From assembly GCF_023055435.1 (NCBI RefSeq), contig NW_025964361.1, positions 12,710,001 through 12,774,000 on the forward strand: DNA of 64,000 bases, given 5' to 3'. Under the pieces are notes generated by a model, which made no database searches, was not told the origin of the DNA, and saw only the letters and a list, made by a program, of their open reading frames with translations. The DNA comes from Haliotis rufescens. Its lineage: Eukaryota. Position 1 is the stretch's first letter; each line of letters begins with the position of its first letter. Shown one piece after another: positions 2,884 to 59,186 of the stretch. The position numbers were made by a program, and so were the translations under genes.

Positions 2884-4020
2884 TTAGCCACTTCTCAGCT
2901 CTTCAAAATATTTTGTAACAGTCTCTAGTATTATCATTCCTTCCAAGTTGTAAATATATAGTTGCCCATTAGCTTCCTCGTCTGAGATACACCCAATGGC
3001 TATTTCATCACCAAATGCTGTTAAAGACATAGCAGCATCATAGTTTTCAGGGCACGTCATTAAAAAAGTATCCAGGTTATTTGTAACATTTCGCATGTAT
3101 ACTCTCAAATCTACAAGACCGTAAATTAGAAGATCTTTCAAAATCACAAGTTGTAACAAATGATGCGGAGCCGAGATGCTCGTAAGTATTTGCGGAATGA
3201 CAGGGGGCTGGTGATTGTATATCACATAATACACATCGTACCTATACCTTCTGTTGACTGTCGTCAATTTGCACCACACGAACATCTTGTCCCTACTTCC
3301 GCCTATAAGATAATTGCTGGCGACTATGTGCTCGTTAACATAGGCAATAACAACTTGGCTTGGATTGTCAATCTCTGTTGCCATCAGTTGCCAGTTGGAA
3401 TCCCGTCCTTGAAAGAAATAGATATGTTTATTCCTTCTGTCATAATAAAGACCGCAGATTTTATCATAGCCCTCACTAACCAGCATTTTTAGAAAACGGC
3501 CATCAAGGGAGTGAAGTCGTATGGTGTAATCATCTGGCTGAACAATCAGAAGACAGGCACGCGAATCCACTGCCCAGTTCATGGGAGAATGTAAGCCAGC
3601 TATGCGTACCCAATTTGTTCCATTTGGGCCCAACACATATAAACCCATTTCAACTGTTTCCTCTCCGAAAAGCAAATCCTTTGAAGAGCCCATTCGAATT
3701 GTGAGCGGGATGCCAGTACATCTGGTTCTTGGGGATAGAGCTGTCCTGTTGGAAGCCACACTTGGACCAACATGAAAAGAAGTATTTGTTTTTGTTGACC
3801 AGTTTCCTTCACTGCTGCTCGGGACAAAAGAACAATTCATAATTCCCGATTCATATACTATCGCACAGATAAAATTGCCAAAGTTCTTGAAGGTACTTTG
3901 TAATAGGTAGTTGTTTGTTTTGCTTTCAAGTTGCAAATGTTTCCATTCAATACATTCAGAAGGAGGCGTTTTAAAGCAGAAACAGGCTACCATCACCACG
4001 ACGTTTCTAAGGCATTTCAT
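2884..4020 (-). CDS. Predicted secreted 378-aa protein with degenerate YWTD/LDL-receptor class B-like beta-propeller, copy 1 (intact)
   Basis: Uninterrupted 378-codon ORF. Hydrophobic N-terminus (MKCLRNVVVMVACFCF). Repeats GLHSPMNWAVDSRACLLIV and IRLHSLDGRFLKMLVSEGYDKICGLYYDRRNKHIYF resemble LDLR-B blades. Several N-x-S/T sites, no TM helix. Same length in three copies. Fold is inferred. Confidence 0.8.
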   Translation of the reverse strand: MKCLRNVVVMVACFCFKTPPSECIEWKHLQLESKTNNYLLQSTFKNFGNFICAIVYESGIMNCSFVPSSSEGNWSTKTNTSFHVGPSVASNRTALSPRTRCTGIPLTIRMGSSKDLLFGEETVEMGLYVLGPNGTNWVRIAGLHSPMNWAVDSRACLLIVQPDDYTIRLHSLDGRFLKMLVSEGYDKICGLYYDRRNKHIYFFQGRDSNWQLMATEIDNPSQVVIAYVNEHIVASNYLIGGSRDKMFVWCKLTTVNRRYRYDVYYVIYNHQPPVIPQILTSISAPHHLLQLVILKDLLIYGLVDLRVYMRNVTNNLDTFLMTCPENYDAAMSLTAFGDEIAIGCISDEEANGQLYIYNLEGMIILETVTKYFEELRSG

Positions 4021-5479: not shown

Positions 5480-6944
5480 AATAAAAATGTCTATTCATGA
5501 ACTACATAATGCCCTTGGACATGCTCACGATACTGCTACAGGAGCTGATAACATACATTATCAAGTCCTGAAGCACTTACCAGAATCATGTTAACAATCA
5601 CTGTTGAATATTTTTGATGAAATTTGGACGTCAGGACACTACATGGAAAGATTTACGTGATATTGGATTGCGAGGCCGTTTGCCTTTTTTAAATCCAATT
5701 TTTCAACAGTCAGAAAATTTCAAGTCCGCTTGGGTACGGTGCTGCCCTGTCCCCTCATCATAATCAGGATCAGGGCGTCTCACAGGGCAGTATTTTATCT
5801 GTCATATTCAGCAAAAAGATCAAAAGTTATAATTTATTCAGTTGATGGATAATTTTGTGTGGATGATTTTAATATTGCCTGTCGTGGTAAAAACATGGAT
5901 ACTATTGAAAGGCAACTCCAATTATGTTCAAATACAGTTCATAAATGGCCACTCGAAAATGGTTTAAAGTTTTCTAAAACTGTTGCCACTGCCACTGTCA
6001 TTGGATCCAGGACTATCTCATCCAGATTACCTGATAGCTGTTCTATTTTAACAGAAGAAGCAAATGCTATTTTAACAGCTCTTAAATATATCAACAGCCA
6101 AACTAAACATAAACAGTTCATATTTTTCAGATTCTCTTTCTTGCCTCCGGGCTATTAAAAAACTTGTCTTGCTCACATCCACCTTTAATTAAAATTGTTG
6201 AATTCTTTAATTAATTTGCTTCTGGCCAATACGACATCGTTTTCTGTTGGTTACCCAGCCATGCTGGTATCATATGTAACACAGTGGCCGATGCTGCTGC
6301 AAAAGCAGCACTCAACAAATCTGTGACACCACTTCTAATCCCACACAGTGACGATAATCCTGTTATTACTTGCCCGTGAAGAGATCACCCGTTTAATAAA
6401 CATACAGTTGTGTTACAGATTGTTTATTACCAAAACGCGTGCTTTTGTACTCTCAGAACACGTTTCACGAACAAATATTGAAAGCTCACAACATCCCTTG
6501 GCTTATTCAACGACATTGCATGTGGAGAGGAGCTTATGCACACTTGATAACCCCAGCAACCTTGTTGCCAGGCTGACGTCACATGACACTGTTTCGCCGA
6601 TGGATCTTGCAACAAAATTCCACAAATTACTCGCTTTCGCTCATCAGATACCACAACTATTCACTCGTTTCATAAACTTAGTATCACATGGGAGCTCGTT
6701 TAGTATTCTCTCTTTATTAGATATTACATTCGAGATCTGATGCATTTTTATATTATGTTAACTTATACTTTCTGCTTTTAAATGTTCTCAACTAGTTTTA
6801 AATCAAATCGGTGATATTCTAGTTAATGTACTGTCCATGGATGACAGGTTTTTATTTGTCTAAATATATGTATTACTAATGTATAACTTTTCGTCACGAT
6901 ATGGCTGAAATATTGCCGATGTGACGTTAAATATGAACTCACTC
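5480..6944 (+). mobile_element. Internally deleted I/Nimb-type LINE (RT pieces, RNase H, 3' tail); homologs at ~18900-20684 and ~32985-34805
   Basis: GADNIHYQVLKHLP, VDDFNIAC, RLPDSCSILTEEANAI, FCWLPSHAGI. The 3' end reads gatatggctgaaatattgccgatgtgacgttaaa...ctcactc. Confidence 0.8.
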
Positions 6945-8645: not shown

Positions 8646-9348
8646 TCAAGCGCTTGAAGCACGGCGTCGGCTGGCGAGCCTGTGTGTTGAGAAAGGCCCT
8701 TCGAGCGTCTGGTGGAGTTGCCTTGCCAGGAGCTTCATTGCTGTGCTCTCTTCCTGTTCACTGATGGCCTTGTACAATATGCCGGTAAGCTGGGCGGCTA
8801 TGTTGGAGATGTACGCCTGACGTATTATCACAGTGCACCAGGAAATCAAAGAGATCCTTCTAACTGTGGATATCATGCTCGAACCTCTCCTCCATGTACC
8901 ATACCATGACCAGCGGTGGGCGCGTACGAGCGCTCGCGAAGTGTTTACCAAGGCTGTTGTCGAAACGAGGGGCGGGGTTGTCCTTGTGCTGCTCCAGAAT
9001 AAAGTAAGCTATCCGTGACAAATCCATACGGGGATCCTCCTTCTCTCTTGGAGGAAGGGCCACCTCAATCTCCTGTCTGGAGACTGAAGGTGTCTCCTTC
9101 TTTTTATTCTGGGGTCTGGGTTTCTGCATCGGGAGTGACGCAGAGGGAGCCAGTTTGTACTTAACCGTGGACTGAGCCCAAGCCTAGTCCAGGGGCCTCT
9201 TTCTTTGATCGAGATAAAAGATGGTGGAGAATGTTGAGGTGTTCTTTCTCTAGGGCGTCTGGAGGGAGAAGTCGCTAACCCGGTACGTTAGAAGCGGTTC
9301 CAGGATGGCGACTAGCTCCCTCGGTAGGGCCTTGCTAATATCTATCAT
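8646..9348 (-). pseudogene. Decayed GC-rich orphan ORF (~230 codons); homologs at ~23503-24148 and ~36716-37413
   Basis: ATG at 9348 (MIDISKALPRELVAILEPLL) is in frame with MQKPRPQ...FEHDIHS. In-frame stops and a probable frameshift into AYISNIAAQLTGILY...RASSA*. Sharp GC contrast with the flanks. Confidence 0.5.
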
Positions 9349-10978: not shown

Positions 10979-12270
10979 TTACAGTGTAGGCATTTTGTGA
11001 CGACAGTAGTTGTTGGAATTTAAAAAGAGTTGGTTTTGTACATAGTATTTCGGTAATAGACTTCTTATATCATTATAGAATGGGCATATCATACAAAAAT
11101 GGTATTCAGTTTCAACACAAGGTACGAAACACAATGGACAGAATCTTTCATTCGCACTTATACCAAGTGTACGTCCGTATTCAATCATAAGTCTATGGTT
11201 TGAACATCTAAATTTAATCAGAGCATTTCTATAAGGATGTACAATGACAAGTGATAGGTATTCTTCAAATTTAAAGACAGTCTTAACAGATTGGTACATT
11301 TTCAATTTAGAATATTTTGACAAATCCTCAAACCACATTTGGTAATCAATCTCTTTACAGCGTTCTTGGAACTCTGACAAAAAGGAAGTGATACAATTAA
11401 CATTTTGGTTTTTCCAAACAAATCCAAAACCATACTTAAATAAAAGCATTTTAACATTATATGCCCAACAACTCTTATCTAATTCAGCTAACCTATATTG
11501 AAAAGAATAGGCCTGCTGTAAAATCACATTATCTTGTTGATAAATTAATCTCAGCCAATACTTAATTATTTTGATGTACATCTTAGCTTTTAATGAAGAA
11601 TATCCAACTTCACCTCTAGCAACAACATTTGGTGTGTTTCTACCAAGACAGAGTAATTGCTTAAAGTAAGTATCATAAACACGGGTTGCGTCTGGCGATG
11701 GATGAAACCCCCAAATTTCAGATCCATAAGTCAACACAGGAAACAATTTAACATAAAAAATATACAGCAATACTTGCAATGATAAATTTCTAAAATTATT
11801 ACATTGGGAGCGCATTGTATTCAAAACCTTGGACATTTGAAAAGACAGAGTTTTCTGTGTTTTATACCAGGAACCACTGCTAGAGAACTGAACACCTAAA
11901 TATTTATAGGAAGGAACTATTTCTAATGGTCTATTGTCAAGATAAAACTTTTCATATTTCCTAAGTCTACCACCTTTTCTAAAAACAACTACTTTTGTTT
12001 TCTCAACATTAACACAGAGGCTCCATTTTTTACAATAAACAGAGAGTTTGTCAAGTCTTTTTTGTAGACCCTTTACTGTACTATCTGGTTTTGCTGTATG
12101 TATTATATCCATTAATGTCTACTTTATCTTCTTTATTCAACCAAGATTCCTCGAAACATGCTATATGATGTTTATTGATAAAATCTAAAGAAAGACTCTT
12201 TTGTATTAATCTCTTGAAACCTTCACAGTTCCACACTGACAGTTTTAGGCTGATATCTGTGCATAATGGA
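10979..12270 (-). pseudogene. RTE-X-like ORF2 remnant (APE N-terminus fused out of frame to RT thumb and C-terminal Zn finger)
   Basis: SVWNCEG...IACFEESW, then a jump at ~12085 to LQKRLDKL...VNVEKTKVVVF, YKYLG, YGSEIWG, KFRCSNHRL, CPLC...EYHF...CPFY. The YADD core is missing. Confidence 0.88.
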
Positions 12271-12284
12271 CGTTGGCCACGCCC

Positions 12285-14463
12285 CTAATCATCATCATTC
12301 GTATCTGTTGCTTCCGCTGATTCCATCACTGCTGCTGCGTTGTTTATACCACTCCTAGTGACTGGTGAGAATGTCTTTATGTGTATTAGGTTTTCATTTA
12401 TGTGATCAAATCTGTACAGTTTGTTATCAATTTGAATCTTATCATATCTCAGTACTGCATACTTCATTTTTTTTTTCATCTCTTGCCTTACCTAGAAACG
12501 TTTTCAACTTACGTCGGGTTTGTCGTACTTTTTCTGGAAAATCCTGAGAGACACCAAACTTCGATCCTTTCAGTTTGCTTGATCCTTTCAATATCGATTT
12601 TCTGTCAAGCGAATTTCAAATAGTCATGAGTACAGGTCTGGGTCCCAGTGATTTGGTAGGAAGTCGTCTGATGTCATCATATACAAAGTCTGTGGGTCTC
12701 AGTTCCATTTTGGTGATAACTTCTTTAACTTTATTTTCGATTTCGCTTGTGGTTTCGCCAGTAGATTCTTCAATATTATAGAATTGACGTAGCGCGCCTT
12801 TGGGGTGACGTAGCTTGTCTTTTGGGTGTACTACTTAATTGGGGGAATTAGCGGTAGCAGCGGTCACGACTGGCTATCACCTTTAAGGACAGAGAAGGCT
12901 GTTGAGTTGGTGGCGTTTATTGGTGGAAGCAGAGTGAAGTTTACACAGTAGTACATTTAATTGTAATGGCACGATAATATATGTAAGAGGTTGAGTCACA
13001 TTCATCTAATTGCATACATGTAATTATAACAATTCAATACGTGTACAACACGTACGATCATAATAATACAATCGGCATACAACCGGTAATAACATGACTG
13101 TAAAGATGTACAATATATTTGCTTAACGGATGGTTATTAAAAGGCATTAATTACGCGAAAATATGTCTGGTAGAAAACAGTAGAAAAACAGGTCACTCGT
13201 GGATATTCTGTTATAAGAGACAATATAAATACATGTTGGCCGACTCAGTTTTCAATGTTACTAAGTTGCAGGCAAATCATTGCTATGAGTATGTGTCACT
13301 GAATGTAGGAACGTACAAGTTATTGACATTGGTACACATACTCATATTGGGATGTTGCCGTGCAACTAGTATACTAATACTAATATATGTTCGCGAGAGG
13401 AAGTATTGTCTGGATATTAAGTCAATGATAATTTTCACAACGCTACGATATAGTCGTAATAGATCTAGCCTACATCTAACGTATTAAGATCGTAGCTGAC
13501 AAAATAAGTTAACAGTTAAGTAAATAGTGACTTACCTTGAAGGACAGAGAAGGCTGTTGAGTTGGTGGCGTTTATTGGTGGAAGCAGAGTGAAGTTTGCT
13601 ACCACCGACCGCCGTATATATACAACTCAGGCCTTCATTACGTTACATAACTAAAGATCACAACATCCCAGGTGTCAGCGGTTGATCGGCTGTAACAATG
13701 AGTGGGTGTGTCATTATTTACGGATTTATTCAAGTAGGTTGTTATATTGCCTAACTGACCCTTATATCACAGTCGGACTGACCATGTGTGCCGGCCCTGT
13801 GACGTGAAGTTACCTCACTAATCACTGGTTCTCAGAGAGAGTGACCCTTTGTGTCAGCCTGGCTGGGCAGACTTGCATAATGAGCCACTGTCTCACAGCT
13901 GGAGTGACCGTGAGTTTAGCCGCATATGTGAAACATAAAATATCTTGGATGCGGCGGTCAGTTAGTGCATTCGCTATACTGAATTTACTTTAAGAATAGT
14001 CAGATTAGTTTACCGATATAGGTTGATTGATATATATTTTCTAATAGGAATTTAGTGTTAGAAGAAAGCTATGACAGAATCTTAGATTATCTTTCTTGCT
14101 AAGTCCCTCCAGATATTCCACTTTATTTGATAGATTATTCACAGTGTCTTTCAGTTCTTTGTTTTCCTCCATCACCAATTGCATTTCTTTCAGTTCTTTT
14201 AGGACTTCAGAAGCAGAAAACTCTCCCTCAATCGTCAGTTGGCGGGTTTTTGGCGGGCCTGGGTTGGACTCAACATCGTTGCTAAGTGTCAACGTCAACA
14301 CAGACACAAACAAACAGAGACGCAGATATAACCTGGTGTTCTTCGGCACGTGCAGCACGTGCGGCCTCATGGCTCCTCGTCTAGCTCTTTTGAACATGAA
14401 GTTGATAAAGATTGAGTGAAAACAGCCGATTCTGGCTGTATAATCTGCAGTTTCACAGCTCAT
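12285..14463 (-). pseudogene. LINE ORF1 (2A-like leader, coiled coil, L1-type RRM/CTD), split by a solo LTR
   Basis: ...NDVESNPGP...VEYLEGLSKKDNLRF resumes across the insertion as YNIEES...PRPVL...VSQDFPEKVRQTRRKL...LRYDKIQIDNKLY. Confidence 0.8.
12785..14076 (-). mobile_element. Solo LTR (Gypsy-like), 1292 bp
   Basis: TG...CA ends with imperfect inverted repeat (tgacgtagc / gctatgaca). 4-bp TSD gaat at 12781-12784 and 14077-14080. Removing it restores the ORF1 frame. TATA and AATAAA on the minus strand. Confidence 0.85.
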
Positions 14464-16406: not shown

Positions 16407-17543
16407 TTAGCCACTTTTCAGGTCTTCAAAATATTTTGTAAAAGTCTCTAGTATTATTGTTCCTTCCAAGTTATAAACATATAGATGCCCATGAGTTTCG
16501 CCTTCTGAGATACACATAATAGCTATTCCATCACGAAATGCTGTTAAAGTCATATCATTTTCAGAGTTTTCAGGGCACTTCATTAAAAACGTATCCAGGT
16601 TATTTGTAACGTTTCGCATGTATACTCTCGAATCTGTAAGACCGTAAATTAGAAGATCTTTCAAAATCACAAATTGTAACAAATGACATGGAGTCGAGAT
16701 ACTCGTAAGCATTTGCGGAATGACAGGGGGCTGGTGATTGTATATTACATAATACACATCGTACCTATACCTTCTGTTGACTTTCGTCAATTTGCACCAC
16801 ACGAACATCTTGTCCCTACTTCCTCCCATACGATAATTGCTGGCGACTATGCGCTCATTAACATAGGCAATAACAACTTTGGTTGGATTGTCAATCTCTG
16901 TTGCCATCAGTTGCCAGTTGGAATCCCGTCCTTGAAAGAAATAGATATGTTTATTACTTCTGTCATAATAAAGACCGCAGATTTCACCATAGCCCTCACT
17001 AACCAGCATTTTTAGAAAACGGCCAACAAGGGAGTGAAGTCGTATGCTGTAACTATCAGGCTGAACTATCAGAAGACAGGCACGCGAATCCACTGCCCAG
17101 TTCATGGGAGAATGTAAGCCAGCTATGCGTACCCAATTTGTTCCATTTGGGTCCAACACATATAAACCCATTTCAACTGTTTCCTCTCCGAAAAGTAAAT
17201 CAATTGAAGAGTCCATTCGAATTGTGAGCGGGATGCCAGTACATCTGGATCTTGGGGATAGAGCTGTCCTGTTAGAAGCCACACTTGGACTAACATGAAA
17301 TGAAGTATTTGTTTTTGTTGACCAGTTTCCTTCACTGCTGCTCGGGACTTAAGAACAATTCATTATTCCCGATTCATATACTATCGAACAGATAAAATTG
17401 CCAAAGTTCATGAAGGTACTTTGTAATAGGTAGTTGTTTGTTTTGCTTTCAAGTTGCAAATGTTTCCATTCAATACTTTCAGAAGGAGGCGTTTTTAATC
17501 AGAAACAGGCTACCATCACCACGACGTTTCTAAGGCTTTTCAT
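16407..17543 (-). pseudogene. Propeller gene copy 2, pseudogene
   Basis: Same 1137-nt span. Premature stops at codon 15 (TGC>TGA, ~17499) and ~codon 65 (TTT>TAA, ~17349). The remainder is open (291-aa ORF in the track). Confidence 0.85.
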
Positions 17544-19769: not shown

Positions 19770-20449
19770 TATTACTTGTGAAGAGATCACCCGTTTACTA
19801 AACATACAGTTGTGTTACGCATTGTGTATTACCAAAACGCGTGCTTTTGCACTCTCGGAACACGTTTCACGAACAAATATTGAAAGCTCAAAACATCCCT
19901 TGGCTTATTTAACGACATTGCATGTGGAGTTGATATATCACTGAGAGGAGCTTATGCACACTTGATAACCCCAGCAACCCTGTTGCTAGGCTGACGTCAC
20001 ATGGCACTGTTTCGCCGATGGATCTTGCAACAAAATTCCACAAATTACGTCATCGGGTATTGTGACGTTATTGTAAACTTTGAGGTGCAAGGGCAGTTCC
20101 GTCTGTTAAAGTATGTGAGTTGCGATAGTCTTAGCCCTACGGTAATGTTGTGAATTCTAAAGGTGGACCATTATATGGTATTAAATTCATACGTTTTTTA
20201 ATTTTGGGCTTGTTTGAATGATTCTTCTGCTAAACTCAATTGGATTATGCCGTGGATCAACAGTATAATTCTAAAAACGTTATAAATGGCAAGTAATAAA
20301 TAAAGTACTAAACTCGCTTCCGTGTAAAACCAATTTTATGAAACTCGTGAATAGTTGTGGTATCTGACTCGCTTTCGCTATATCAGATACAACAACAATT
20401 CACTCGTTTTTTAAAAGTGTTATCACATAGGAGCTCGTTTAGTATTCTA
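19770..20449 (+). mobile_element. Non-autonomous hairpin-ended element (possibly Crypton-type); also at ~6363-6708 (deleted) and ~33851-34570
   Basis: Interrupts the LINE frame (DKPV|IRYYIRDLM), flanked by ttatta on both sides. ~65-bp-arm imperfect hairpin at the right end. Independent copies at 43691 and 58780. Confidence 0.65.
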
Positions 20450-30429: not shown

Positions 30430-31566
30430 TTAGCCACTTTTCAGCTCTTCAAAATATTTTGTAACAGTCTCTAGTATTATTGTTCCTTCCAAGTTGTAAA
30501 CATATAGATGCCCATGAGTTTCGCCTTCTGAGATACACATAATGGCTATTCCATCACGAAATGCTGTTAAAGTCATATCATTTTCAGAGTTTTCAGGGCA
30601 CTTCATTAAAAACGTATCCAGGTTATTTGTAACGTTTCGCATGTATACTCTCGAATCTGTAAGACCGTAAATTAGAAGATCTTTCAAAATCACAAGTTGT
30701 AACAAATGATGCGGAGCCGAGATACTCGTAAGTATTTGCGGAATGACAGGGGGCTGGTGATTGTATATTACATAATACACATCGTACCTATACCTTCTGT
30801 TGACTTTCGTCAATTTGCACCACACGAACATCTTGTCCCTACTTCCTCCCATACGATAATTGCTGGCGACTATGCGCTCATTAACATAGGCAATAACAAC
30901 TTTGGTTGGATTGTCAATCTCTGTTGCCATCAGTTGCCAGTTGGAATCCCGTCCTTGAAAGAAATAGATATGTTTATTACTTCTGTCATAATAAAGACCG
31001 CAGATTTCATCATAGCCCTCACTAACCAGCATTTTTAGAAAACGGCCATCAAGGGAGTGAAGTCGTATGCTGTAACTATCAGGCTGAACTATCAGAAGAC
31101 AGGCACGCGAATCCACTGCCCAGTTCATGGGAGAATGTAAGCCAGATATGCGTACCCAATTTGTTCCATTCGGGGCCAACACATATAAACCCATTTCAAC
31201 TGTTTCCTCTCCGAAAAGTAAATCCTTTGAAGAGTCCATTCGAATTTTGAGCGGGATGCCAGTACATCTGGATCTTGGGGATAGAGCTGTCCTGTTAGAA
31301 GCCACACTTGGACTAACATGAAATGAAGTATTTGTTTTTGTTGACCAGTTTCCTTCACTGCTGCTCGGGAGAAAAGAACAATTCATTATTCCCGATTCAT
31401 ATACTATCGAACAGATAAAATTGCCAAAGTTCATGAAGGTACTTTGTAATAGGTAGTTGTTTTTTTTGCTTTCAAGTTGCAAATGTTTCCATTCAATACT
31501 TTCAGAAGGAGGCGTTTTTAAGCAGAAACAGGCTACCATCACCACAACGTTTCTAAGGCTTTTCAT
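30430..31566 (-). CDS. Propeller gene copy 3 (intact, 378 aa)
   Basis: Full ORF with about 42 aa differences from copy 1 (~89% identity, counted by eye). Confidence 0.8.
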   Translation of the reverse strand: MKSLRNVVVMVACFCLKTPPSESIEWKHLQLESKKNNYLLQSTFMNFGNFICSIVYESGIMNCSFLPSSSEGNWSTKTNTSFHVSPSVASNRTALSPRSRCTGIPLKIRMDSSKDLLFGEETVEMGLYVLAPNGTNWVRISGLHSPMNWAVDSRACLLIVQPDSYSIRLHSLDGRFLKMLVSEGYDEICGLYYDRSNKHIYFFQGRDSNWQLMATEIDNPTKVVIAYVNERIVASNYRMGGSRDKMFVWCKLTKVNRRYRYDVYYVIYNHQPPVIPQILTSISAPHHLLQLVILKDLLIYGLTDSRVYMRNVTNNLDTFLMKCPENSENDMTLTAFRDGIAIMCISEGETHGHLYVYNLEGTIILETVTKYFEELKSG

Positions 31567-32649: not shown

Positions 32650-35600
32650 GTTCTGTCCTTTAGTGTCTACAATTTTGAGGTACAGTCGATCATGCTGTCT
32701 ACGAAGATTCCAAAGAGCATTAAAAAAGTCAAACGTTGTTTTATCAAGAATACAATATTAAAGGCCTTGGTGAAACTTTAAAAAATGTTAATGGTAGACA
32801 GATGGTAGACAGGTGGAAGACATTTCCAAATATTACGCATCACTGATAAAAGTGATGTACGATCGAATTATCACCCAGTTGAATATTTGCAGATCCCCAG
32901 AAAGTTCTTAACGTTCACTTCATACAGCGTTTTTAAGAGATAGCCCATCAGCCAGATTCAGATAATGGGGAAGATTACAATAAAAATGTCTATTCATGAA
33001 CTACATAATGCCCTTGGACATGCTCACAATACTGCTACAGGAGCTGATAACATACATTATCAAGTCCTGAAGCACTCACCAGAATCATGTTTACAATCAC
33101 TGTTGAATATTTTTGATAAAATTTGGACGTCAGGACACTACATGGAAAGATTTACATGATATTGGATTGCGAGGCCGTTTGCCTTTTTTAAATCCATTTT
33201 TTTAACAGTCAGAAAATTTCAAGTCCGCTTGGGTACGGTGCTGCCCTGTCCGCTCATCATAATCAGGATCAGGGCGTCTCACAGGGCATATTCACCATAA
33301 AGATCAATAGTTTATCAAAAGTTATAATTTATTCAGTTGATGGATAATTTTGTGTGGATGATTTTAATATTGCCTGTCGTGGTAAAAACATGGATACTAT
33401 TGAAAGGCAACTCCAATTATGTTCAAATACAGTTCATAAATGGCCACTCGAAAATGGTTTAAAGTTTTCTAAAACTGTTGCCAGTGCCACTGTCATTGGA
33501 TCCAGGACTATCTCATCCAGATTACCTGATAGCTGTTCTTTTTTTAACAGAAGAAGCAAATGCTATTTTAACAGCTCTTAAATATATCAACAGCCAAACT
33601 AAACATAAACAGTTCATATTTTTCAGATTCTCTTTCTTGCCTCCAGGCTAATAAAAAAGCTCACATCCACTTTTAATTAAAATTGTTGAATTCTTTAATT
33701 AATTTGCTTCTGGCCAATACGACATCGTTTTCTGTTGGCTACCCAGCCATGCTGGTATCATAGGTAACACAATGGCCGATGCTGCTGCAAAAGCAGCGCT
33801 CAACAAATCTGTGACGCCACTTCTAATCCCATACAGTGACGATAATCCTGTTATTACTTGCCCGTGAAGAGATCACCCGTTTAATAAACATACAGTTGTG
33901 TTACACATTGTGTATTACCAAAACGCGTGCTTTTGTACTCTTGGAACACTTTTCACGAACAAATATTGAAAGCTCACAACACCCCTTGGCTTATTCAACG
34001 ACATTGCATGTGGAGAGGAGCTTATGCACACTTGATAACCCCAGCAACCTTGTTGCCAGGCTGACGTCACATGACACTGTTTCGCCGATGGATCTTGCAA
34101 CAAAATTCCACAAATTACGTCATCGGGTATTGTGACGTTATTGTAAACTTTGAGGTGCAAGGCCAGTTCCACAAGGCGATCGTATTGTAGCGGAACGACA
34201 GTCGTTAGTCTGTTAAAGTATGTGAGTTGCGATAGTCTTAGCCCTACGGTAATGTTGTGAAATCTAAAGGTGGACCGTTATATGGTATTAAATTCATACG
34301 TTTCAACTTTTGACGTGTTTGAAGTATTATTCTGTTAAACTCAATTGGACTATGCCGTGGATCGTTTCGGTGCCAGCCTATTCATACTCAAAAGTATAAT
34401 TCTAAAAACGTTATAAATGGCAAGTAATAAATAAACTACTAAACTCGCTTCCGTGTAAAACCAATTTTATGAAACTCATGAATAGTTGTGGTATCTGACT
34501 CGCTTTCTGACCTCAACTATTCACTCGTTTCATAAAATTTGTATCACATGGGAGCTCGTTCAGTGTTCTATCTTTATTAGATATTACATCCGAGATCTGA
34601 TGCATATTTATATTGTGTTAACTTATACTTTCTGCTTTTAAATGTTCTCAAATAGTTTTAAATCGAATCGGTGATATTCTAGTTATTGTACTGTCCATCG
34701 ATGACAGGTTTTTATTTGTCTAAATATATGTATTACTAATGTATAACTTTTCGTCACGATATGGCTGAAATATTGCCGATGTGACGTTAAATATGAACTC
34801 ACTCTCTATGTTTTAGTGTTGTTAAAATGGTGTTTGCTTCTACTGTGAATATGGACTGTAATCTGGTAATCGTGAAGATACTGTTCTGGATCCAATATAA
34901 ATATACATTTATAAGTTTCATATGTGTTTCTTAATTGCTTGTATTTCTGTATATTAATTAGTGGGTTTGTGTCAGATTTTTTCAGTTTTGTTTATGTCAG
35001 GTCGACATTTCACCTTACCATTTGCCAAGGAGGTGATGAAAAGAGTTGAGAGGGAGCTATATCTTAACACTAGTATTAGAAGCAGAAATGACAGATTTAA
35101 TTCTGAATCCAAGTGTTGAACCACGAGACTTTTGTAAATAACCCTTACATTCTCCAGTATAGACGATGGAGCCGTAATCAAATTGGTAAGGGTTGTCTGA
35201 TCTCCTCCCTACTTTGAATTAGATACAACTTTCAACAAATCGGATGACATCAGAAATTTAGATCTAAGTGATTCAATGTGTAGTAAGAAAGTTAACTGGC
35301 TATCAAAGATCAGTCCCTAGAATTTGGCCTTCTCGACAACTTTGATAGTAAATAATTCAGGGACTTATGTGGCTTATATTTTCTTCACAAATGTATGTAT
35401 AGTTAGTTTTTTATTATCTAAAAGTGTCTGAATACATGGTTCAGGCAAATGCTTCAAAAACTGATAATGGATATTATCTTCCCCTTTCCTCAGTATTGAG
35501 AACGTGTTGTCTCACCGTAAGTTTTCCTTAAAATAAAATAGATGAATTGAGGGAAAACGATTTATTCAGATGCAGTGTGTGAATCAATAAACATTTCGAT

Positions 35601-43351: not shown

Positions 43352-45063
43352 TTAGCCACTTTTCAGCTCTTCAAAATATTTTACAGTCTCTAGTATTATC
43401 GTTCCTTCCAAGTTGTAAACATATACATGCCCATGAGTTTCCTCTTCTGAGATACACACAATGGCTATTTCATCACCAAATGCTGTTAAAGACTAAGCAT
43501 CATCATAGTTTTCAGGGCACTTTATTAAAAACGTATCCAGGTTATTTGTAACGTTTCGCATGTATACTCTCAAATCTACAATACTGTAAATTAGAAGATC
43601 TTTCAAAATCACAAATTGTAACAAATGACGCGGAGCCGAGATGCTCGTAAGTATTTGCGGAATGACAGGGGGCTGGTGATTGTATATATATAGAATACTA
43701 AACGAGTTCCCGTGTAATACCAATTTTATGAAACGAGTGAATAGTTGTGGTATCTGACGATTGGTTTTACAGGGGAGCTAGTTTTGTATTTTATTTATTA
43801 CTTACCTTTTATAACGTTTTTAGAATTACATTGTTGAGTATGAATAGGCTGACACTTACACGATCCACGGCATAGCCCAACTGAGTGTAACAGAATAATA
43901 GATTGTAATTCTAACACCTTGAAAGTTGAAACGTATGAATTTAATACCATTCAACAGTCCACCTTTAGAATTCACAAAATTGTCGTAGGGCTAAGACTAT
44001 CGCAACTCACATACTTTAACAGACTAACGACTGTCGTTGCGATCGCCTTGTTGAACGGGCCTTGCACCTCAAAGTTTACAATAACGTCAAAATAACCGAT
44101 GACGTAATTTGTGGATTTTTGTTGCAAGATCCATCGGCGAAACAATGCCATGTGACGTCAGCCTAGCAACACGGTTGCTGGGGTAATCGAGTGTGCATAA
44201 GCTCCTCTCAGTCCACAAGCAATGTCGTTGAATAAGCCAAAGGATGTGGAGAGCTTTCAATATTTGTTCGTGAAACGTGTTTCGAGAGTACATAAGCACG
44301 CGTTTTTGTATTACACAATGTGTAATACAGCTGTATGTTCATCTTGTTCCTACTTCCGCCTATAAGATAAGTGCTGGTGACTATGTGCTCGTTAACATAG
44401 GCAATAACAACTTTGGTTGGATTGTCAATCTCTGTTGCCATCAGTTGCCAGTTGGAATCCCGTCCTTGAACGAAAATGATATGTTTATTACTTTTGTCAT
44501 AACGAAGTCCGCAGATTTCATCATAGCCCTCACTAACCAGCATTTTTAGAAAACGGCCATCAAGGGAGTGAAGTCGTATGCTGTAACTATCAGGCTGAAC
44601 TATCAGAAGACAGGCACGCGAATCCACTGCCCAGTTCATGGGAGAATGTAAGCCAGATATGCGAAACCCAATTTGTTCCATTCGGGTCCAACACATATAA
44701 ACCCATTTCAACTGTTTCCTCTGCGAAAAGTAAATCCTTTGAAGAGTCCATTCGAATTGTGAGCGGGATGCCAGTACATCTGGATCTTGGGGATAGAGCT
44801 GTCCTGTTAGAAGCCACTCTTGGACTAACATGAAATGAAGTATTTGTTTTTTGTTGACCAGTTTCCTTCACTGCTGCTCGGGAGAAAAGAACAATTCATA
44901 ATTCCCGATTCATATACTATCGCACAGATAAAATTGCCAAAGTTCATGAAGGTACTTTTGTTTTGCTTTCAAGTTGCAAATGTTTCCATTCAATACTTTC
45001 AGAAGGAGGCGTTTTTAAGCAGAAACAGGCTACCATCACCACGACGTTTCTAAGGCTTTTCAT
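43352..45063 (-). pseudogene. Propeller gene copy 4, pseudogene
   Basis: Frameshifting indels near 44958, 44850 and 44665, an in-frame stop at 43493, and a ~650-bp mobile element (43691-44336) replacing ~60 bp of coding sequence. Confidence 0.88.
43691..44336 (-). mobile_element. Same hairpin-ended element inserted in propeller gene copy 4
   Basis: Reverse-complement homolog of ~19805-20449. Confidence 0.8.
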
Positions 45064-49680: not shown

Positions 49681-51083
49681 AAGCAGCCTTACTCGTGTTA
49701 CCTGTGGAGCCAGCCTTACTCGTGTTACCTGTGGAGCGAGCCTTACACGTGTTACCTGTTAAGCCAGCCTTACTCGTGTTACCTGTGGAGCGAGCCTTAC
49801 ACGTGTTACCTGTGGACGCAGCCTTACTCATGTTACCTGTGGAGCAAGCTTTACACGTGTTACCTGTTAAGCCAGCCTTACTCGTGTTACCTGTGGAGCG
49901 AGCCTTACACGTGTTACCTGTGGACGCTGCCTTACTCATGTTACCTGTGGAGCCATCCTTACTCATGTTACCTGTGGAGCAAGCCTTACACGTGTTACCT
50001 GTTAAGCCAGCCTTACTCGTGTTACCTGTGGAGCGAGCCTTACTCGTGTTACCTGTGGAGCCAGCCATATTCATGTTACCTGTGGAGCCAGCGTTACTCA
50101 TGTTACCTGTGGAGCCAGCCTTACTTGTGTTACATGTGGAGCCAGCCTTACTCATGTTACATGTCGAGCCAGCCTTACTCTTGTTACATGTCGAGCTAGC
50201 CTTACTCATGTTACATGTCGAGCCAGCCTTACTTGTGTTACCTGTAAAGCCAGCCTTTCTCGTGTTACATGTCGAGCCAGCCTTACTCGTGTTATCTGTG
50301 GAGCCAGCCTTACTCGTGTTACCTGTGGAGCCAGCCATACTCATGTTACCTGTGGAGCCAGCCTTACTCATGTTTCATGTGGAGCCAGCCTTACTCATGT
50401 TACATGTCGAGCCAGCCTTACTCGTGTTACATGTCGAGCTAGCCTTACTCATGTTACATGTCGAGCCAGCCTTACATGTGTTACCTGTTAAGCCAGCCTT
50501 ACTCGTGTTACATGTCGAGCCAGCCTTACTCGTGTTACCTGTGGAGCCAGCCTTACACGTGTTACCTGTGGAGTGAGCCTTACTCGTGTTCAATGTTGAG
50601 CCAGCCTTACACGTGTTACCTGTGGAAGCAGCCCTACTCGTGTTACATGTCGAGCCAGCCTTACTCATGTTACCTGTGGAGCGAGCCTTACACGTGTTAC
50701 ATGTCGAGCCAGCCTTACTGATGGTACCTGTGGAGCCAGCCTTATGTTACCTGTGGAGCCAGCCTTACTTGTGTTACCTGTTAAGCCAGCCTTACTCGTG
50801 TTACCTGTGGAGCCAGCCTTACTCGTGTTACCTGTGGAGCCAGCCTTACTCGTGTTACCTGTGGAGCCAGCCTTACTCGTGTTACCTGTGGAGCCAGCCT
50901 GACTCGTGTTCCCTATGGAGCCAGCCTTACTCGTGTTTAATGTTGAGCCAGCCTTACATGTGTTACCTGTGGAGCCAGCCTTACTCATGTTACCTGTGGA
51001 GCCAGCCTTATCATGTTACCTGTGGAGCGAGCCTTATCATGTTACCTGTGGAGCGAGCCTTACTCGTGTTACCTGTGGAAGCA
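49681..51083. repeat. 27-bp minisatellite, ~52 copies
   Basis: Unit gagccagccttactcgtgttacctgtg. Confidence 0.97.
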
Positions 51084-55837: not shown

Positions 55838-56988
55838 GGCAAGGTTCATGTTTAGATGATTGCATTGTTAACGTTTAGTTGATTGCAAGGTTCATGTATA
55901 GTTGATTGCAAGGTTCATGTATAGTTGATTGCAAGGTTCATGTTTAGTTGATTGCAAGGTTCATGTATAGTTGATTGCAAGGTTCATGTATAGTTGATTG
56001 CAAGGTTCATGTTTAGTTGATTGCAAGGTTCATGTTTAGTTGATTGCAAGGTTCACGTTTAAATGATTGCAAGGTACACGTTTAGTTGATTGCAAGGTTC
56101 ATGTTTAGTTGATTGCAAGGTTCATGTTTAGTTGATTGCAAGGTTCATGTATAGTTGATTGCAAGGTTCATGTTTGGTTGATTGCAAGGTTCATGTATAG
56201 TTGATTGCAAGGTTCATGTTTAGTTGATTGCAAGGTACACGTTTAGTTGATTGCAAGGTACACGTTTAGTTGATTGCAAGGTTCATGTTTAGTTGATTGC
56301 AAGGTTCATGTTTATTTGATTGGAAGGTACACGTTTAGGTAATTGCAAGGTACATGTTTAGTTGATTGCAAGGTTCATGTATAGTTGATTGCAAGGTTCA
56401 TGTATAGTTGATTGCAAGGTTCATGTTTGGGTGATTGCAAGGTTCATGTTTAGTTGATTGCAAGGTTCATGTTTATTTGATTGGAAGGTACACGTTTAGG
56501 TAATTGCAAGGTACATGTTTAGTTGATTGCAAGGTTCATGTATAGTTGATTGCAAGGTTCATGTATAGTTGATTGCAAGGTTCATGTTTGGGTGATTGCA
56601 AGGTTCATGTTTAGTTGATTGCAAGGTTCACGTTTAAATGATTGCAAGGTACACGTTTAGTTGATTGCAAGGTTCATGTTTAGTTGATTGCAAGGTTCAT
56701 GTATAGTTGATTGCAAGGTTCATGTTTAGTTGATTGCAAGGTTCATGTTTAGTTGATTGCAAGGTTCATGTATATTTGATTGCAAGGTTCATGTTTAGTT
56801 GATTGCAAGGTTCATGTTTAGTTGATTGCAAGGTTCATGTTTAGGTGATTGCAAGGTTCATATTTAGTTGATTGCAAGGTTCATGTTTAGTTGATTGCAA
56901 GGTTCATGTTTAGGTGATTGCAATATTCATATTTAGTTGATTGCAAGGTTCATGTTTAGTTGACTGCAAGGTTCATGTTTAGTTGATT
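55838..56988. repeat. 23-bp minisatellite, ~50 copies, in ANAPC10 intron 2
   Basis: Unit gttgattgcaaggttcatgt(t/a)ta. Confidence 0.97.
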
Positions 56989-57100
56989 GAGTTTGGTCTC
57001 CACTGTGAACCAATGCTTGTTTGCCAATGTAAGGGAGCGATGACACTTTTACACAGCTTGAAGCAAAACAACATTTACATAAACATGATAGACAGTGTAC

Positions 57101-58779: not shown

Positions 58780-59186
58780 TTAGGGCTAAGACTATCGCGA
58801 CTCACATACTTTAACAGACTAACGACTGTCGTTGCGCTACAATACGATCGCCTTGTGGAACGGGCCTTGCACCTGAAAGTTTACAATAACGTCACAATAC
58901 CCGATGACGTAATCTGTGGAATTTTGTTGCAAGATCCATTGGCAAAACAATGCCATGTGATTTCAGCCTAGCAACAAGGTTGCTGGGGTCATCGAGTGTG
59001 CATAAGCTCCTCTCAGTGATCTATCAATTCTACACGCAATGTCGTTGAATAAGCCAAGGGATGTTGAGAGCTTTCAATATTTGTTCGTGAAACGTGTTCC
59101 GAGAGTACATAAGCACGCGTTTTGGTATTACACAATGTGTAATACAGCTGTATGTAAACGGGTGATCTCTTCAAGGGCAAGTAATA
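58780..59186 (-). mobile_element. Partial copy of the same element in ANAPC10 intron 1
   Basis: Reverse-complement homolog of ~33851-34245. Ends aagggcaagtaataa. Confidence 0.75.

Follow-up and report, generated by a model that had tools for sequence, protein, structure and literature searches.

The YWTD (LDL-receptor class B) β-propellers bind their ligands on the top face. Their six-bladed fold is also predicted for copy 1, the first of four tandem gene copies in the window, by which we mean the whole 64,000-nucleotide stretch of Haliotis rufescens DNA analyzed here. Fold searches with the model of copy 1 matched six-bladed propellers, namely ROS1/Sevenless (9pwq; Z 19.7, rmsd 3.9, 262 aligned), TolB (Z 19.2), ApoER2 (5b4x; Z 18.8), LRP4 (3v65; Z 18.4), LDLR (3p5b; Z 18.1) and nidogen (1npe; Z 18.0). 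The nearest feature clusters in the Atlas carry PF00058 (0.89 for copy 1 and 0.91 for the Haliotis rubra protein P0003). However, the abalone family is only 10–13% identical to YWTD propellers, without a PF00058 match and without a YWTD word in the aligned members. Its single-exon frames end directly after the last strand and have neither an EGF module nor a membrane anchor. Since TolB, Kelch and NHL propellers score about equally, descent from YWTD is only a lead. Judged by sequence, the abalone protein lies outside the YWTD family and would act like a stand-alone propeller.

Two further systems are close in their evolutionary pattern. The abalone lysin/sp18 paralogs are likewise tandemly duplicated and secreted and are discussed under positive selection (PMC9022041). 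Unlike the propeller family, lysin/sp18 genes have introns, and the word "propeller" is absent from that paper. The second system is the Teshima-Innan signature, i.e., divergence peaks kept under gene conversion, which is described for opsin exon 5 and for Drosophila CG18281/CG17637 (PMC2588116 and PMC3924837). No description of the propeller family, and no link of it to gametes, was found in the titles and abstract openings searched, outside subscription journals.

Four tandem units of ~13.5 kb fill the window array, each with one single-exon gene copy on the minus strand. Copy 1 (2884–4020) is an open frame of 378 codons. Copy 3 (30430–31566) is also an open 378-codon frame and carries an alternative C-terminal type (30430–30666). 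Copy 2 (16407–17543) has the copy-3-type C-terminus and stops at codons 15 and 65, making it a probable pseudogene. Copy 4 (43352–45063) is a mosaic of copy-1 and copy-3 states and is broken by frameshifts, a stop at codon 331 and a ~650-base insertion near 43688–44340. This insertion matches, partly inverted, repeat DNA of the other units (6399–6630, 19801–20334 and 33887–34571), and further matching repeat DNA lies at 58781–59155. A fifth copy was absent from the upstream 10 kb.

The window also holds other elements. A minus-strand frame at 14041–14463 contains the word DVESNPGP, which we take to be a 2A/StopGo-like motif, and adjoins a reverse-transcriptase remnant (10979–12112) with a weak RVT_1 match (E = 0.008). 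There are two minisatellites, one at 49684–51079 (27-base unit, 52 copies), which gives spurious long frames, and one at 55839–56989 (23-base unit, 50 copies).

The frame of copy 1 starts with a likely signal peptide (residues ~1–22, 3955–4020, minus strand as for all features of the gene), judged by eye. Its ATG is conserved in copies 1–4 and in cluster B, and the N-termini of most family members are hydrophobic. A two-cysteine region and a Ser/Thr-rich linker follow (3673–3954), modeled with low confidence and with four N-glycosylation sequons. This order of hydrophobic start, two-cysteine region and linker recurs in most members. Residues 117–377 (2890–3672) form the predicted propeller according to DSSP of the model, and the structural match covers model residues 84–356. 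The AlphaFold2 model of copy 1 has a mean pLDDT of 73.5, with mostly 70–92 in the all-β domain (~117–377), and a second AlphaFold2 model, of a cluster-C member, has the same strand pattern. The last propeller strand is predicted to close blade 1. Taken together, the gene product is predicted to be a secreted six-bladed β-propeller. In alignment A2, 19 rows include a C-terminus, and in 14 of these the closing strand is followed by a terminal glycine, while cluster C ends in INKM and P0009 in GVA.

Genome searches gave ~25 open frames of ~360 codons or more in this genome, plus fragments; these copy counts are lower bounds. All copies counted are open and intron-free. Cluster A is the window array, cluster B comprises two genes 35 Mb away, clusters C (nine copies) and E (four copies) lie on C605, and there are several single genes. 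The C and E copies, ~42% identical between the two subfamilies, are interleaved at C605:21.02–21.17 Mb (L035–L059, L095–L124) together with many 5′ and 3′ gene fragments, and selection could be tested better in this array than in the window array. An identical protein is found on three contigs (L019, L020 and L021 on C542, C17 and C464), as unplaced duplicates or a very young array. L134 (2952–6188, minus strand; C301, ~3.997–4.000 Mb) is a family member whose frame of 1078 codons has a long Asn/Gln/Thr/Pro repeat stalk before the propeller-like part, a hint that the linker serves as a mucin-like spacer that can be lengthened.

A profile scan of 1.84 billion proteins returned 12 matches, six of which align as family members (P0001–P0004, P0009 and P0012; five Logan proteins and one protein of Haliotis rubra). 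The latter, XP_046562715.1 (uncharacterized protein LOC124271608; P0003; profile E = 1.3e-59), is the sole named relative. It shares ~21% identity with copy 1, is nearest to L023, and is annotated without a function. We excluded the other six (E between 1.5e-12 and 6.5e-5), which are probably propeller-repeat proteins unrelated to the family: P0005 and P0007 seem to be bacterial, and P0010 falls into a cluster with a "beta propeller repeat protein". Pfam gave no family above cut-off for the members scanned. PF00058 was detected in none of 13 members scanned and in none of seven further proteins, and the Kelch, NHL and TolB families gave no match at E ≤ 0.1 in the members scanned. The PDB sequence search yielded a single weak match (E = 0.68). 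Word-index protein searches retained 1 of 818 and 2 of 3193 candidates, and none of 2414 candidates was a longer form of the protein, which is weak evidence. Across the family the cysteines and the fold are conserved at 20% identity. Judging from the sequences retrieved, the family is so far found only in abalone-like data.

The initial annotation had pointed to a cluster of amino-acid-changing substitutions between copies 1 and 3 over the last ~76 codons, and our recount agrees with it. Codons 301–378, referred to as the patch (2884–3120; most of blade 5 and blade 6), hold 26 nucleotide differences with 19 amino-acid changes and 2 purely synonymous codons. The ~23 changes counted for the first ~300 residues were also correct (codons 1–300 hold 23 amino-acid changes and 12 synonymous codons, from 36 nucleotide differences), as were the peptides quoted. 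Nonsynonymous divergence is raised in the patch (pN = 0.125 vs. 0.034 elsewhere), whereas silent divergence is the same inside (pS = 0.059, 3/51) and in the rest of the gene (0.063, 12/192). A scan permutation of the amino-acid changes gave p = 0.004 with windows of 78 codons, 0.0003 with 60 and 0.087 with 100.

We also compared the patch with the flanking non-coding DNA, as had been proposed. Between the units of copies 1 and 3, 326 of 7960 non-coding bases are different (4.1%), and 0.9% of 7494 overlapping non-coding windows of 234 bases reach 26 differences. As plain nucleotide divergence the patch is thus unusual, but not unique. Two non-coding stretches (2370–2500 and 8690–8930) diverge between the two copies as much as the coding patch does (at least 22 differences per 234 bases). 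Divergence is also raised in the 3′ flank of copy 1 (2252–2883; 43/619 bases, 6.9%), which runs into what resembles a decayed LINE ORF1. The frames of copies 1 and 3 have no indels between them, compared with ~5.7 expected from the flanks (P = 0.003).

Codon models were fitted with our own code (MG-type, κ near the flank estimate of 1.7–1.9, a separate tree for each segment), and all p values are uncorrected across many tests. For the patch we obtained ω = 3.35 (CI 0.95–26). The comparison with the rest of the gene gave p = 0.029, and the test against 1 gave p = 0.078 at κ = 1.5, 0.06 at 2 and 0.041 at 3. High ω is found throughout the gene, at 0.76–0.88 in the N-terminal part. Clusters C and E, which had not been used in choosing the region, have a joint C-terminal ω of 1.84 (0.99–3.85) vs. 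0.79 (p = 0.056 against 1, p = 0.03 against the rest), and with B added the C-terminal ω of the independent clusters is 1.04. M1a/M2a, fitted with our own code on fixed segments with segment-wise trees, gave p = 0.37 for copies 1 and 3, 0.13 for all four window copies, 1 for B, 0.022 for C and 0.032 for E. Within cluster E, L045 and L046 are separated by 19 nonsynonymous C-terminal changes and 1 silent one. Pooled putative orthologue pairs show no C-terminal excess (23/235 differences vs. 40/544 elsewhere, p = 0.25). The pair P0003/L023 was kept out of this count, being too divergent (120 of 275 residues differ); its own C-terminal excess has p = 0.11. On sequence comparison, selection on the patch is suggested.

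Loops were classed from DSSP and standard blade topology, the d–a and b–c loops being the top ones by the usual naming convention for propellers. Mapped onto the structure model, 9 of the 19 changed patch residues sit in three predicted top-face loops: the b–c loop of blade 5 (residues 303–305, 3106–3114; two changes), the d–a loop between blades 5 and 6 (residues 323–330, 3031–3054; four changes) and the b–c loop of blade 6 (residues 346–350, 2971–2985; three changes). Among the copies, residue 350 can be A, T, P or S. The three loops, a region chosen after the fact, carry 9–11 nonsynonymous steps on 36 sites. With 11/36, the loops exceed local neutral sites (47/676; p = 5e-5, or 0.001 if multi-base codons count once) and silent sites (4/57; p = 0.004, or 0.018).

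Fixed-class models gave a top-loop ω of 2.28 for copies 1 and 3 (p = 0.044), 8.2 for E (p < 1e-4), 1.33 for B and 0.76 for C. Fitted jointly, the four paralog clusters have ω = 1.49 in top loops, 0.63 in bottom loops and 0.88 in strands (top vs. 1, p = 0.029; top vs. bottom, p = 0.0003). Clusters B, C and E alone, which played no part in picking the region, show the same order (1.35 vs. 0.55, p = 0.0009; top vs. 1, p = 0.137). Stratified counts over all clusters gave 69 top-loop changes where 54.6 were expected (p = 0.007; B, C and E alone p = 0.031). When multi-base codons are counted once, p is 0.17 for copies 1 and 3, 0.14 for B, C and E, and 0.071 for all. In the fixed-class model of copies 1 and 3, loops wider by one residue give p = 0.089. 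Three close putative orthologue pairs differ at 22 of 142 top-loop and 10 of 149 bottom-loop residues (p = 0.023). On the modeled fold, the asymmetry between top and bottom faces is solid, though the top-face excess is absent in cluster C, while a top-loop ω above 1 is borderline. It is the predicted top-face loops, and not the C-terminus in itself, that seem to carry the signal.

The original reading was diversifying selection on a binding surface. It holds up in so far as the variation maps to predicted top-face loops, which may be the binding surface, and sister clusters lend support; a dN/dS above 1, on the other hand, is not established in the window array by the patch or M1a/M2a tests above. 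The explanation we prefer, with slightly better than even confidence, is a secreted binding protein in which positive selection has retuned the top-face loops from one tandem copy to the next, while the rest is subject to conversion and gene death. Copies would arise through tandem duplication of a single-exon gene, and gene conversion would shuffle or homogenize much of the unit. Substitutions in the top-face loops would be favored because they alter binding specificity, and some copies, such as 2 and 4, would die.

Gene conversion appears to be real in this family, as segment trees differ across it and give a mosaic. In the most serious alternative, which we judge less likely than not, the genes would be weakly constrained, with tolerant top loops (ω ~1) and somewhat conserved bottom loops and strands, and conversion would lower mid-gene divergence so that the 3′ end looks like a peak. 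Cluster B exemplifies this: the flanks of its pair are 13.8% apart and the mid-gene 0.8–6%, and mid-gene conversion accounts for its C-terminal peak, which has an ω of 0.4. We therefore rejected cluster B as a replicate of the patch. In all clusters compared, divergence is higher in the 3′ flank than mid-gene, and in B, E and one C pair the homology is interrupted close to the stop. An ω of ~0.8 outside the patch, two broken copies among the four in the window, the non-significant conservative counts and a neutral ratio of changes private to a second species (see below) would also fit. But homology in the window array is collinear for ~1.1 kb past the stop, the patch has no excess of silent divergence, the divergence of its top loops far exceeds that of the local neutral DNA, and the 19-to-1 ratio of L045/L046 also speaks against this alternative.

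Selective retuning of the loops can also be set against what is seen in a second species label, organism B, in which both C-terminal types occur in three of four runs. There, 12 of 18 checkable differences (range 2894–3107) are fixed between the types in both species, as are 3 silent differences, while four (codons 322, 350, 351 and 362) are absent from its copy-1 type and two vary among its copy-3 alleles. Copy-1 orthologues differ at eight sites, and all seven of those listed are nonsynonymous (decoded by hand; p = 0.15). Changes found in organism B only are at the neutral ratio (seven nonsynonymous to two silent, p = 0.64). All three of its copy-3-type contigs have Thr313→Lys (window 3083, codon 313), which removes the sole glycosylation sequon in the C-terminal half of the propeller. 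The outgroups B1, B2 and copy 4 assign ~8 amino-acid changes to the copy-1 line and ~14 to the copy-3 line, with codons 329, 343 and 350 changed on both. Copy 4 or organism B has intermediate codons at 329, 343 and 362. The changes on both lines and the pattern in organism B argue for a stepwise growth of the patch and against an artefact of assembly.

The patch resembles the Teshima-Innan peaks in that paralog divergence is locally high, with many nonsynonymous sites fixed between the paralogs in two species (12 amino acids and 3 silent sites). The likeness so far is one of the peak; flanking species-specific shared sites would be the mark of ongoing conversion. At 3379–3725 organism B has single collapsed contigs; contigs drop variants, so this is only a hint of shared sites. 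With a background divergence of 4% between copies 1 and 3, a plain older duplication can explain the shared types.

The initial annotation had itself raised the possibility of a conversion tract from a distant, neutrally evolving paralog. We checked this and consider it quite unlikely for the window array, where one tract from a distant, possibly lost, donor is largely refuted. The mosaic segment trees, the mixed states of copy 4 and the pattern in cluster B would suit such a tract, and the donor may be missing from the assembly. However, both lineages have changed and there are intermediate codons between the types, four copy-1 changes are absent from organism B's copy-1 type, silent divergence is not raised, and 12 of 18 differences are fixed in the second species. 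The genome search gave no donor nearer than the copies of the array itself; among seven matches to the copy-3 patch, the best from elsewhere in the genome was 81%.

That the copies are an artefact of assembly or haplotypes, or that the frame is open but unexpressed, is very improbable: no RNA record is listed for the gene and 0 of 10 paralogous proteins looked up are in the protein collection, but both types were seen in independent runs and in a second species, the frames are indel-free, the cysteines and fold are kept across the family, and a RefSeq relative exists in H. rubra. Run X19, RNA by guess, was dropped as expression evidence as it covers the non-coding flank too.

If the loops are indeed retuned by selection, the ligand would most likely be a variable external molecule. 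As an unsupported guess, we would give a microbial or parasite ligand an even chance, a gamete or conspecific one roughly a third, and leave the small remainder to anything else. A wider reading, which we offer tentatively and hold to be more probably wrong than right, is that the ~25 secreted single-exon propellers derive from a detached YWTD-like module and form a germline-encoded variable recognition system for pathogens or gametes, on a scaffold not described before. Its top face would be under selection, recurrently in blades 5–6, while conversion shuffles the copies. Genes that duplicate in tandem and change fast on a binding face are a familiar evolutionary pattern; the protein family is apparently undescribed. 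Copies 1 and 3 represent two natural variants kept across species that are directly comparable in binding assays. If the preferred explanation is true, abalone would have a lineage-restricted secreted binding family, without a Pfam profile, with a small mapped set of variable loops. If the wider reading is true as well, it would be a new scaffold for invertebrate variable recognition and bear on abalone disease resistance or fertilization.
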